NCBI RefSeq assembly: GCF_051903065.1
Contig: NZ_CP178438.1
Length of the DNA stretch: 64,000 bases
Reading direction: 5' to 3' (one strand)
Source: Escherichia coli
GTDB taxonomy: Bacteria > Pseudomonadota > Gammaproteobacteria > Enterobacterales > Enterobacteriaceae
Below the pieces are notes generated by a model that was not told the origin of the DNA, searched no databases, and worked only from the letters and a program-made list of their open reading frames with translations. Each line of letters starts with the position of its first letter. Positions within the stretch are counted from its first letter, which is position 1. The position numbers and the translations under genes are program-made. Positions 7,140 to 8,975 of the stretch are shown here, in pieces.

Positions 7140-7811
7140 TTAATAACCAATTATTTCTCGCACATACTTCAAATGTAGCAGTGCCCGTTGCAAGGCATTG
7201 TCTGCATTTCCTGCACGAATCGCCTCAATAATTGCTTTATGCTGTTGATTAAGTTTGATAAGTACATTCTTATCGCCGGAACGTTTATCCAGCCCAGCAT
7301 AAGGTATATTGACACGCTGCTCCCAAAGCATCCGTGACATATCTAACAACACCCTATTATGGCTGGCTTCAGAAATGGTCAGATGAAACTGCTTATCAAG
7401 CATATAAAATTCAGCCACATTATTTTCATGAATGGAATTTTCCATTCGGAAATGGAGTAACTCAATTTTATTAATTATTGTTTCATTATTAGCCAGTGCT
7501 GCAAGTCGGGCACAATGACTATCAACTAAATCACGGACATAAAGAATTTCTTCGATAGTGTAATCGACTGGAGAGTGTTTATTATCACTGACAATAATCC
7601 CATTACCAGACTGAATAATAATCCAGCCAGATATCTCAAGAACAATAAGAGCTTCTCTCAGCGATGAACGACTAACTCCCAGTTGTTTCGCCAGCTCACG
7701 CTCTGGAGGTAAAAAACTACCTGGCGGAAAGACATTATCATTGATGAGCTTAATAATAAGATTCGCTATCTTTTGATAGAGCCTTTCCTGTTTAATTTCT
7801 GGAATTAACAT
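7140..7811 (-). CDS. GntR/FadR-family transcriptional regulator (winged HTH plus FCD-like C-terminal domain), low GC
   Basis: 223 aa; HTH region PPERELAKQLGVSRSSLREALIVLE; markedly AT-rich relative to neighbours. Confidence 0.75.
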   Translation of the reverse strand: MLIPEIKQERLYQKIANLIIKLINDNVFPPGSFLPPERELAKQLGVSRSSLREALIVLEISGWIIIQSGNGIIVSDNKHSPVDYTIEEILYVRDLVDSHCARLAALANNETIINKIELLHFRMENSIHENNVAEFYMLDKQFHLTISEASHNRVLLDMSRMLWEQRVNIPYAGLDKRSGDKNVLIKLNQQHKAIIEAIRAGNADNALQRALLHLKYVREIIGY

Positions 7812-7957
7812 GTGCCTCCCGCTCGCTTTTATCGTTAGTTATCTGACGAATTATCATATCATACTTGGTTCGGATCTACTGGTTTCGCGTGACAATGACG
7901 AAAAATCAGCAGTTTGTCATCAGTAGCAGAAAGACGTCTATCCGGTTTCGATCCTGA

Positions 7958-8308
7958 CTATTGGCGTAATAAAACGCCCTCCCTTTCTATCAATAGGTTA
8001 TAGTCAGGATAAAAATCATATTCGTCGACGCCAATATTGTCCGTGACCGAAAACCTTTCACTGACTAAGGCTTGGATACGCAAACCAGCCATTTTGTTAC
8101 GTAGATTTTCGAGAATGATTTTAGCGTGTGATAATTCTGTTTCGACAAACAAAATAATAAATCCTTCGGCACCATAGAGGAAAACATAAGCACTGATGAG
8201 AATATGCTCACAAATCATCGAAGAGAAATTTTTCTGTGTATTAACCTCGGAATTATGTCTATAACGATTATTAATTTTCTTGAGGATAATCAATATCCAG
8301 CATGGCAA
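7958..8308 (-). CDS. Hypothetical protein, possible degenerate GGDEF-like domain fragment (TTG start)
   Basis: 116 aa; LYGAEGFIILF resembles RYGGEEF signature with substitutions; stop codon immediately upstream in frame; low GC. Confidence 0.3.
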   Translation of the reverse strand: MPCWILIILKKINNRYRHNSEVNTQKNFSSMICEHILISAYVFLYGAEGFIILFVETELSHAKIILENLRNKMAGLRIQALVSERFSVTDNIGVDEYDFYPDYNLLIEREGVLLRQ

Positions 8309-8975
8309 GGGAGAATTGTTTACGTGAGTGCAACGCGATAGAGATTTTCCGCCGCATAATCGTCAGAATAAGCGTCGATTTAATAGTTATGTAAGAGAAT
8401 CTTTACCGTTTCCATGAATGTACCTAAGGTCATTAGTTCTTTTCTGACAGCTTCCGGAAAATTTTTATGTAGAGCAGAAGGCGTAACAAGTCTATCCTCC
8501 CTCCGCTTCTTTCATTTTCTGGTATTGTGCCGGGGATACGCGTGGCAATTTCCGTGGCCATGGGGGGGCATCTTACTATACCTACGCTGAAGCGTGTGAA
8601 GGTCAGGGTATGATGACATGGTTAAATACTCACGGCCACTGCCTGACCTACTTGAGCAACGTACCGAAGCTGCTCAGCCCCGATAAACTAAGAAGCGCAG
8701 CGCTATGTTCCTGTCATCCACGACAGTAACCAGGCCCTGCAGAGTACTATGGTACGGTTATCATACCGGTTCACCCACGCAAACCAAAAGCACAAAAAAC
8801 GGTGTTTTCACCGTTGAAAGATAGCTGCTTGCCCGTATCCATAATGAAACCTTCCATGCACTCAGGACGTTGAATGGTAAGCATCCGGTGAACTCGCATT
8901 GCCGGCCGTTGTGAACCACGCCATTCTGCAGGTTCTTCCTTTATATGCAAAAGAGAGAAAACTGATGGCAAAAAA

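Follow-up and report, generated by a model that had tools for sequence, protein, structure and literature searches.

A probable IS-truncated cassette core with an orphan GntR/FCD regulator in the argW-dsdA island of Escherichia coli ZF8-1

The stretch of DNA analyzed here (64,000 nucleotides, hereafter the window) matches the chromosome of Escherichia coli ZF8-1 at 100% and belongs to an argW-dsdA island riddled with insertion sequences. Its positions 7125-8415 share 90% nucleotide identity with part of a complete cassette carried by ~100-kb E. coli plasmids, and we consider it very likely that this segment represents the core of a cassette gained by horizontal transfer and truncated by insertion sequences, in which the regulator gene gntR has been orphaned and the neighboring diguanylate cyclase gene is dead. 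The locus is a case of ordinary mobile-cassette decay, already annotated, and contains no new system. The features of the region are the following:

6871-7017, minus strand: first 49 codons of insG, part of the IS4 fragment
6890-7100, minus strand: left-end fragment of IS4, with a terminal inverted repeat ending ...TAATGCCGATC and an internal hairpin
~7018-7055, minus strand: terminator-like hairpin AAUCCGGAAACG-CUCACU-CGUUUCCGGAUU with a U-run behind it that stops one base short of the insG start codon
7101-7124, no strand: 24 nt, CGGCTATACCGGAGGTATATTTAT, that separate the end of IS4 from the first position homologous to the cassette
7140-7811, minus strand: gntR, intact, 223 aa, FadR subfamily (RefSeq WP_000906844.1)
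7853-7861, minus strand: candidate extended -10 element TGATATGAT for gntR, ~45 nt upstream of the ATG
7906-8415, minus strand: pseudogene, 3' remnant (approximately the last 170 of 467 codons) of a gene for a globin-coupled diguanylate cyclase resembling DosC
7958-8308, minus strand: 116-aa ORF inside the cyclase remnant, carrying GAEGF
8416-8876, plus strand: island-specific stretch with the left-hand part of a probable istA pseudogene of the IS21 family (IstA-like reading from ~8560, frameshifted)
8869-8876 (left) and 11402-11409 (right), no strand: 8-bp target-site duplication of IS66, GTTGAATG, read directly from the sequence
8877-11401, plus strand: IS66-family element with tnpA, tnpB and tnpC (PGAP), tnpC having an internal stop
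11410-~11508, plus strand: continuation of the istA pseudogene beyond the IS66 insertion
11513-11638, minus strand: N-terminal fragment of IS200 tnpA (NF033573, E = 7.5e-11), bounding the IS21 remnant

The island holding the cassette remnant is flanked by argW, an integrase gene and dsdA, and is a mosaic of IS1, IS3, IS4, IS21, IS30, IS66, IS200 and IS256 pieces; its other cargo includes autotransporters and the csc sucrose genes. The argW-dsdC region is a known integration hotspot (PMC10459773), and IS decay of the tRNA-linked island CPS-53/KpLE1 of K-12 concerns the identical chromosomal site and likewise an IS mosaic, the difference from our island residing in the cargo only and in nothing fundamental. 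Scanning positions 6500-14000 against Rfam with E values up to 1 yielded only a match to isrC in the neighboring IS3 element and two chance-level matches. In the plasmids the cassette presents, in what was very likely also the ancestral order, an MFS transporter, a Zn-alcohol dehydrogenase (ADH), a bidirectional terminator, gntR, a gene for a 467-aa DosC-like cyclase and lysE, all five proteins being assigned by Pfam and NCBIfam. The gntR gene is convergent to MFS-ADH across the terminator, while lysE and the cyclase gene run in the direction of gntR, with little space between the three genes (94 bp from the cyclase gene to gntR). The first-pass annotation had described 7140-8858 as low-GC cargo, and the GC content is indeed 0.37-0.40 over ~7000-8500; the stretch 8416-8876, however, has values of 0.45-0.51 and hence is not low-GC cargo.

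This stretch forms the upstream edge of the cassette remnant. It had been proposed that 8309-8858 was one cargo segment lacking a convincing ORF, once contiguous with 11410-11645 and split by IS66. We also found no credible intact ORF there, but the segment is composite: 8309-8415 belongs to the cyclase pseudogene, and from 8416 onward the sequence is mostly debris, with higher GC, of what is probably an IS21 istA gene. Positions 8416-8876 were found only in 157 island-bearing genomes, PGAP places an IS21 fragment at 8539-8821, and the stitched, frameshift-corrected translation matched positions 145-283 of NF033546 with 53.3 bits (E = 2.8e-14; the cut-off of 160 applies to full-length proteins, and a low score is expected for a fragment). 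No IS21 ends and no istB are present at this remnant. The element inserted in it shows the features of the IS66 family, including 26-nt inverted repeats (8877-8902 and 11376-11401, 96% complementary, beginning GTAAGC), the 8-bp duplication and the order tnpA-tnpB-tnpC. Because the insertion is clean, with inverted repeats and duplication, the two flanks were once contiguous, as had been claimed, and the reading that reaches ALRTLN before the junction and continues as VRFWDLLTDMNNRPMKEYG after it crosses in a single-stretch alignment to the IS21 model. The right-hand partner nonetheless ends at ~11508 rather than at 11645, the sequence from 11513 being the IS200 fragment (96.6% matches to IS200C-associated plasmid sequence; an incomplete transposase according to PGAP). 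When the IS66-free junction was reconstructed and used as a query, no E. coli genome or plasmid covered at least 80% of it.

At the downstream edge the region abuts IS4, with 98% identity to the K-12-type element (insG) over 6890-7100 (query 291-501), where PGAP also reports an IS4 family transposase fragment. A clean terminator had been assigned to gntR. The hairpin and its U-run are real, and a 130-nt RNA containing them (7139-7010) folds with a minimum free energy of -41.4 kcal/mol (z = -3.96), but the structure lies outside 7140-8858, inside IS4 and at least 84 nt past the stop codon, and is not native to gntR. The native terminator of the cassette, seen in the plasmid and in the sibling strain E9 (on the ADH side in the latter), is absent from the window; it has a different sequence, and the plasmid copy folds with -21.3 kcal/mol (z = -5.22). 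The internal hairpin of IS4 now occupies its former place. A consensus terminator scan did not list the IS4 hairpin, and the one site that it reported (8798-8815, in the IS21 fragment) is at chance level and was judged of no significance. The 24 nt at 7101-7124 are present in all island copies and show no similarity to the sequence downstream of gntR in the plasmid, Citrobacter or Salmonella. The presence in E9 of an intron 5' end directly after the ADH terminator (RF02001, 89 bits) prompted the idea that these nucleotides were the tip of a group II intron; this was ruled out, the 3' end of a related full-length intron, that of UPEC129 (RF00029, locus positions 4748-4819), being unrelated in sequence.

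The regulator gene itself is intact, as first annotated. Its product combines an N-terminal GntR winged helix-turn-helix (PF00392 at residues 11-74, with 69.1 bits where the gathering score is 27) with a C-terminal, all-helical FCD effector-binding domain (PF07729 at residues 88-214, with 78.6 bits where the gathering score is 24.3, aligned to positions 1-123 of the 125 in the model). This two-domain architecture is common to the sugar-acid regulators of E. coli UxuR, ExuR, LldR, GlcC, PdhR and NanR, to whose models the protein aligns near full length and which are its best NCBIfam matches. Their scores nevertheless range between 78 and 106 bits against equivalog cut-offs of 260-442 (105.8 against 311 for LldR, the top named match), so that by these cut-offs the protein is equivalent to none of the six, nor to FadR, and its ligand is not assignable by homology. 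Unlike the named FadR-type regulators it is accessory, horizontally carried and devoid of target genes in the window; its presence in only 209 of 5,426 complete genomes disposes of the possibility that it is a conserved core-genome regulator. Comparison with the plasmid GntR (92.4% amino acid identity; dN/dS 0.23, dS 0.17) indicates that gntR evolved under purifying selection. Index blocks with this exact protein sequence number 9,385, and the island copies are ~99.5-100% identical to each other, for which reason the intactness of gntR among them is little informative on current selection. Upstream of the gene, a block TG(A/G)TATG(A/C)TAA stands conserved between diverged flanks in the window, the plasmid, S. 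diarizonae and two Citrobacter loci, and we infer that it is gntR's own promoter. This -10 block excepted, no autoregulatory operator is conserved across the upstream regions of E. coli, Citrobacter and Salmonella.

Examination of gntR loci elsewhere pointed to the genes with which the regulator belongs. The neighbors conserved beside it are the genes for an MFS transporter of the galactonate type and for a Zn-ADH: in S. diarizonae and in four Citrobacter genomes, gntR homologs (74-79% amino acid identity) occur together with MFS (94-95%) and ADH (84-89%), and no gene for a GGDEF protein or LysE lies within 8 kb of them. Citrobacter adds UxuA (mannonate dehydratase) and fructuronate reductase (UxuB) to this set. 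The partnership with a sugar-acid transporter and a dehydrogenase is one that the regulator shares with the sugar-acid FadR-type regulators. The suspicion that the likely target genes are missing was borne out, since neither MFS nor ADH gave a tblastn match in the 64-kb window or is annotated in the rest of the argW-dsdA island of this strain. In E9, however, an intact MFS-ADH pair is kept 5.5 kb from gntR, in inverted orientation, and the ADH allele of E9 with its junction was found in 147 genomes. The co-occurrence of gntR and MFS-ADH in one island was shown for E9; a second sibling locus shows ADH, with the position of MFS falling beyond the locus end, and we assume that the 147 carriers of ADH overlap with the ~160 carriers of gntR. 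Judged from these sequences, ZF8-1 is a strain that deleted MFS-ADH. The description of the region as the regulatory stub of a lost metabolic or signaling operon is therefore apt for ZF8-1, from which MFS-ADH has gone, but the operon has been kept in E9 and the partner is metabolic rather than signaling.

Conservation of the MFS and ADH partners, with UxuA and UxuB in Citrobacter, makes the regulator probably a hexonate-responsive repressor. It would be a FadR-type, ligand-released repressor of an MFS-ADH operon for the uptake and oxidation of a hexonate through L-gulonate-like chemistry, as conservation and gene context suggest. Its operator would probably be the palindrome TTGTGGTC-N9-GACCACAA (in E9 or the plasmid, TTGTGGTCAGGCCGCTAGACCACAA), which directly precedes the ribosome-binding site of MFS and is conserved at this place in every homologous locus. 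The 9-nt spacer is longer than in classical FadR-family operators, and the palindrome could instead be a structure of the 5'-UTR. No copy of it with up to three mismatches is present in the 64-kb window. In ZF8-1, the gene's own extended -10 promoter may still drive gntR, with transcripts probably ending at the IS4 hairpin, and the regulator, lacking a cognate operator nearby, is most likely a functionless passenger. An L-gulonate pathway formed by a transporter, GulD, UxuB and UxuA has been experimentally established in Haemophilus influenzae (PMC5788505), and its logic of transporter, dehydrogenase, UxuB and UxuA is matched by the Citrobacter gntR cluster. The cassette differs from this module in that its transporter is of the MFS and not of the TRAP type and the substrate of its dehydrogenase is putative; the plasmid and island versions of E. 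coli hold MFS and ADH only, and the window holds none of these genes.

The second gene of the remnant retains only the tail of a cyclase. The plasmid 467-aa protein has Protoglobin (39.7 bits), DosC_2nd (104.7 bits) and GGDEF (PF00990, 156.7 bits) domains, an architecture common to DosC/DgcO of E. coli K-12 (PDB 4ZVA-4ZVH), which is the best solved-structure match for all three (4ZVE, 4ZVA and 4ZVC), and carries GGEEF and an RxxD I-site; plasmid-borne DosC homologs have already been reported in E. coli (bioRxiv 10.1101/2025.05.09.653004). In contrast, the window copy is a frameshifted tail of ~170 codons that does not lie beside dosP. Aligned with pMUB-MIN9-2, it has deletions of 5 bp and 1 bp, a 1-bp insertion and an in-frame stop (dN/dS 0.68, dS 0.19), and homology ends at ~8415, so that ~296 N-terminal codons, with the globin and DosC middle domains that are fused to GGDEF in the plasmid homolog, are missing. 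The active-site motif has changed from GGEEF to GAEGF, which no longer conforms to GG[D/E]EF, and the I-site five residues upstream from RSSD to LISA. In DgcX, motility was no longer affected once the second Glu was mutated (GGEAF), whereas some activity remained in a GGAEF mutant (PMC10459773); this second Glu, reportedly dominant for DgcX activity, is Gly in the window. With its frameshifts, its stop and the destruction of both active site and I-site, the GGDEF tail is a dead pseudogene. No intact copy of the window allele was found: the identical truncation is shared by every one of the ~160 genomes in which the allele occurs at 99% identity or more, and the 10 contexts read for the exact GntR protein all contain the cyclase remnant and the IS66 element. 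The 116-aa ORF had been called degenerate and GGDEF-like; its GAEGF core is present and over 100 aa it has 70% identity with a genuine DosC-like cyclase, which dismisses the idea that it might have no similarity to the GGDEF fold, but it is a decayed pseudogene tail and not a protein that evolved as a degenerate GGDEF.

That the ORF could still act as a c-di-GMP receptor or protein-interaction module, forming a small signaling pair with GntR, deserves almost no credence in our opinion. The reading frame exists, PGAP names a 119-aa version in most sibling genomes ("nucleotidyl cyclase domain-containing protein"), and regulatory degenerate GGDEF proteins such as CdgI/YeaI are known in E. coli (mentioned in PMC10459773). 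Against these points, the ORF covers only model positions 43-143 of 161 of PF00990, lacking the first ~40 positions of the domain, and scores 20.8 bits, below the gathering threshold of 23.8; relative to its intact homolog it has suffered the three indels and the in-frame stop and ends in a frameshifted, non-homologous C-terminus; the A-site is gone and so is the I-site RxxD that a receptor requires; and its dN/dS is well above that of the neighboring gntR. Moreover, its length and stop position vary among near-identical strains, and the four differences between the window and E9 over 7101-8876 all fall within it. A signaling role could be placed instead at the level of the intact cassette, if the true target of the regulator were an autoregulated operon of lysE, the cyclase gene and gntR and the stub were a remnant of c-di-GMP signaling. 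The co-directional arrangement of the three plasmid genes with the short cyclase-gntR gap, and the attachment of the cyclase remnant to gntR in every island copy, would fit such an operon. We regard it as unlikely, however, because in Citrobacter and S. diarizonae gntR stands beside MFS-ADH with neither GGDEF nor LysE nearby, because gntR is preceded by a conserved promoter element of its own, and because the sole strongly conserved palindrome is that at the MFS promoter.

It is similarly improbable that the orphan regulator has been co-opted, being retained to cross-regulate core hexuronate/hexonate genes (the UxuR, ExuR and LgoR regulons) or genes of the island. Such a role would agree with an ORF that is intact and identical in very many assemblies while its neighbor decays, with the presence of UxuR and ExuR among its closest named relatives, and with the retention of the promoter element. 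Yet the island copies are nearly clonal, and the intactness of gntR is therefore expected without selection; the candidate operator has no copy within the 64 kb; and the cognate MFS-ADH pair kept in E9, together with the ADH allele of 147 genomes, is enough to explain the retention of gntR in the wider lineage. A broader proposal, that a sugar acid acts through the co-opted orphan GntR/FCD protein on core or island genes or that the plasmid regulator couples a sugar acid to the expression of an O2-sensing cyclase, seems to us very improbable. Were it true for the plasmid cassette, diet-derived carbon would be linked to the control of c-di-GMP and biofilm on a mobile element. The reading that we favor remains that of a metabolic regulator, probably of a hexonate operon, orphaned by decay of its cassette.

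Taking these results together with their bearing on annotation, a "degenerate" signaling domain and a "clean terminator" may both be by-products of IS-mediated decay. The intact but uncharacterized plasmid cassette, in which a hexonate module lies beside a DosC-like cyclase, could be of modest interest for work on c-di-GMP in E. coli. The island copies would illustrate the stepwise orphaning of an accessory regulator, from IS and intron insertions to inversion and then deletion, and the E9-type and ZF8-1-type islands, with and without the cognate MFS-ADH, offer a natural pair on the residual function of an orphan regulator.

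In the window, the segment 7120-8411 is 90.4% identical to one found on many plasmids of about 100 kb in E. coli, and on plasmid pMUB-MIN9-2 this segment is a complete cassette, with an MFS transporter and a Zn-binding dehydrogenase (ADH) followed, in convergent orientation, by the gene of the GntR/FCD regulator (gntR), a 467-aa GGDEF protein and a LysE-family exporter. The features retained in the window, and the insertion sequence end beside them, are:

6890-7100: IS4 left-end fragment, 211 bp, 98% identity to the K-12-type IS4 left end
7140-7811, minus strand: gntR ORF, 223 aa, GntR winged-HTH and FCD domains
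7853-7861: candidate extended -10 promoter of gntR, conserved block TG(A/G)TATG(A/C)TAA
7958-8308, minus strand: 116-aa ORF, GAEGF motif

The regulator gene is intact, as first described, the winged-HTH (69.1 bits) and FCD (78.6 bits) domains both scoring well over the Pfam thresholds. The block upstream of gntR is kept in the window, the plasmid, two Citrobacter loci and S. diarizonae while its surroundings diverge, which is consistent with gntR being driven by its own extended -10 promoter, independently of the truncated cyclase gene.

The plasmid GGDEF protein contains Protoglobin, DosC middle and GGDEF domains, a GGEEF motif and an RSSD I-site, and its best matches among solved structures are the three domains of E. 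coli DosC (4ZVE, E = 1.7e-47; 4ZVA/4ZVB; 4ZVC); DosC homologs on E. coli plasmids have already been noted (bioRxiv 10.1101/2025.05.09.653004). Nucleotide alignment to the plasmid shows that homology to this gene stops at about 8415 in the window, leaving approximately the last 170 of the 467 codons. Translation of this 510-bp remnant (7906-8415) in the plasmid frame meets an in-frame stop codon and gives GAEGF for GGEEF and LISA for RSSD, without the Arg that precedes the motif; the remnant also carries one 1-bp insertion and one 1-bp deletion, and a 5-bp deletion near its 3' end swaps the true C-terminus for unrelated residues. Mutants of DgcX showed that activity depends mainly on the second Glu of the GGEEF motif (PMC10459773), a residue that is Gly in the window, and the GGDEF match of the 116-aa ORF lies below the Pfam threshold (20.8 versus 23.8 bits, model positions 43-143 of 161). 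At comparable dS (0.19 and 0.17), dN/dS is 0.68 for the remnant versus 0.23 for gntR. Comparison with the sibling strain E. coli E9 over 7101-8876 yielded four differences (7960, 8184, 8244 and 8369), all inside the remnant and one of them producing the window's earlier stop (7958-7960), with no change in the IS21 fragment, the intergenic region or gntR; despite the small numbers, this clustering is notable. The indels, the stop, the motif loss, the dN/dS and the E9 differences form a pattern of relaxed constraint. Descended from a DosC-like globin-coupled cyclase, the remnant fails every defining test of a functional GGDEF protein, and on its sequence the 116-aa ORF is a pseudogene tail of the cyclase gene and not an evolved degenerate GGDEF protein; the first-pass annotation had noted a degenerate, GGDEF-like ORF with a GAEGF core, but not that the ORF is a decayed tail.

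What the regulator probably controls is suggested by its partners elsewhere. When one genome per species was scanned, homologs of 74-77% amino acid identity turned up in five, four Citrobacter genomes and one of Salmonella enterica subsp. diarizonae, and at all five loci the MFS (94-95% amino acid identity to the plasmid) and Zn-ADH (84-89%) genes are convergent with gntR, while none of them has a GGDEF or LysE gene near gntR. The MFS protein falls within the D-galactonate transporter subfamily, and at the one locus examined for further genes, the operon of Citrobacter sp. Cu233, there are also UxuA (mannonate dehydratase, 759 bits) and fructuronate reductase (972 bits), the same logic of transporter, dehydrogenase, UxuB and UxuA as in the experimentally established L-gulonate pathway (PMC5788505). 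These observations lead us to infer a hexonate-responsive FadR-type repressor of MFS-ADH. Such a regulator would work like UxuR/ExuR-type sugar-acid repressors, yet it belongs to no named equivalog; because it scores under the cut-off of every named NCBIfam equivalog, its ligand is not assignable by homology. The plasmid, Citrobacter, Salmonella and E9 loci share a candidate operator just upstream of the MFS ribosome-binding site, a 25-27-bp palindrome (TTGTGGTC-N9-GACCACAA) of which no copy occurs in the window with up to 3 mismatches allowed. The MFS promoter regions (loci L002, L003, L005, L007 and L018, the last being E9) also share the motif ATTTTTCGTTAT(A/G)TTGATCAC, of which a looser relative, ATTTTTCGTCATTGTCAC, precedes gntR in the E. 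coli alleles (about 7881-7898 in the window); this could represent a binding site common to both, such as a CRP-like half-site.

That the likely target genes had been lost was proposed from the window alone, and genomes in which the regulator accompanies an intact operon do exist, namely the plasmid cassette, Citrobacter, S. diarizonae and, at a distance, E9. The E9 island retains intact MFS and ADH genes (93% nucleotide identity to the plasmid, palindrome kept), followed by the native terminator, directly after it the 5' portion of a group II intron (RF02001, 89 bits), and then an IS3 element, an IS66 element, an IS21 fragment, the cyclase remnant and gntR; the block with gntR is inverted with respect to MFS-ADH, at a distance of about 5.5 kb. 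Collinearity between the window and E9 extends over 5413-11601 and 12605-13432; at 13432, in place of all that leads to ADH-MFS, there is a junction of IS30 and IS911. Neither gene was found in the whole ZF8-1 island, which was fully covered by the loci read. Since E9 retains both, the window's strain is a further-deleted derivative and its regulator is truly orphaned; the loss holds for this island but not for E9. The ADH allele with its downstream junction occurs at 99% identity or more in 147 complete E. coli genomes, and one metagenome scaffold carries the exact regulator together with its cognate ADH. At about 13433-14653 an intact IS30 copy is inserted into an IS3-family element, beyond which an IS911 fragment and an S16 serine protease fragment stand in place of E9's lead-in to ADH-MFS; this is likely the site of the deletion that orphaned gntR. 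The window also has 1,003 bp absent from E9 (11602-12604), with part of an IS256-family transposase gene (11646-12313) and further maturase sequence of a group II intron. The E9 intron (L018 12944-13485 and 14643-15210), later broken by the IS3 insertion, begins with GTGCGCC directly after the ADH/gntR bidirectional terminator, and a related intron in UPEC129 (L019), downstream of grpO, likewise directly follows a terminator; all that remains in the window are RT/maturase fragments (about 12340-13172, minus strand).

The stretch 8309-8858, first described as 550 bp without a convincing ORF, is not one segment. Up to 8415 it is further cyclase pseudogene, while 8416-8876, confined to the 157 island-bearing genomes, translates as a frameshifted IS21 IstA. 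The IS66-family element splitting it has 26-nt inverted repeats (8877-8902 and 11376-11401) flanked by a perfect 8-bp direct repeat, GTTGAATG (8869-8876 and 11402-11409), indicating a simple insertion into once contiguous sequence. Independent confirmation comes from the IstA reading, which runs across the insertion point ("...ALRTLN|VRFWDLLTDMNNRPMKEYG...") and aligns to the NCBIfam IS21 transposase in one stretch (positions 145-283, E = 2.8e-14). The proposed contiguity was therefore correct, but its partner ends near 11508 and not at 11645, because an IS200 tnpA fragment starts at 11513 (E = 7.5e-11). No IS66-free site was found in any E. coli genome or plasmid searched. This IS66 copy is probably defective, since its tnpC is interrupted by a stop at about 10600-10605; the tnpC coding region also contains a 42-nt tandem duplication (9760-9843) whose two copies are 93% identical.

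The clean terminator attributed to gntR exists as a hairpin with a U-run, the only clean one downstream (about 7018-7055, minus strand), but it lies within the IS4 fragment, stopping a single base short of the insG start codon (7017). Although it does not belong to the regulator gene itself, it may still stop gntR transcripts. The native bidirectional terminator (ACGCGTAGTG-loop-CACTACGCGT and T-run), present in the plasmid and, in E9, next to ADH, is absent from the window. Between the IS4 end and the cassette homology, the 24 nt at 7101-7124 (CGGCTATACCGGAGGTATATTTAT, containing a small hairpin) had no match among the sequences compared. The 5' region of the adjoining IS3-family ISEc31 element gives a strong match to the Hfq-binding sRNA isrC (Rfam; 6500-6603, minus strand, 117 bits, cut by the search boundary at 6500; L018 20210-20332 in E9, 150 bits).

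The E. coli ZF8-1 chromosome is 100% identical to the window over 7000-8900, and 157 complete E. coli genomes share the structure (at least 80% coverage of that query). In the annotated ZF8-1 record, the island starts at tRNA-Arg (argW) beside yfdC, ends with the csc sucrose genes and dsdA, and holds an integrase, autotransporters and a dense IS1/IS3/IS4/IS21/IS30/IS66/IS200/IS256 mosaic. GC is 0.37-0.40 over about 7000-8500, versus the 0.5-0.67 reached in flanking IS elements. Two autotransporter genes of the island are intact in the window, at 848-4345 (minus strand; 1,165 aa, Pertactin and Autotransporter domains) and at about 23598-26444 (an Ag43/Cah-family adhesin). The csc cluster (about 29966-34851: cscR-like LacI regulator, cscA, kinase, oligosaccharide MFS transporter) adjoins a truncated dsdX at the far end, and an IS1 copy abuts evgS (about 44152-44849).

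The regulator is accessory, outside the core genome: of 5,426 complete genomes, 209 carry the module of gntR and remnant, 160 with the window allele, truncated every time, and about 50 with an allele of about 90% identity and an intact cyclase gene, 30 such copies being plasmid-borne. The assembly index lists the exact regulator protein in 9,385 blocks; all 10 contexts read have the same remnant and IS66 neighbour.

Every piece has already been annotated by PGAP and every component belongs to a well-known family. The locus as a whole gives a textbook picture of a horizontally acquired cassette, lodged in a tRNA-linked island, being scrambled and eroded step by step through IS elements and an intron. 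There is a small residual possibility that the orphan regulator has been co-opted, or that the intact plasmid cassette couples sugar-acid sensing to c-di-GMP signalling.
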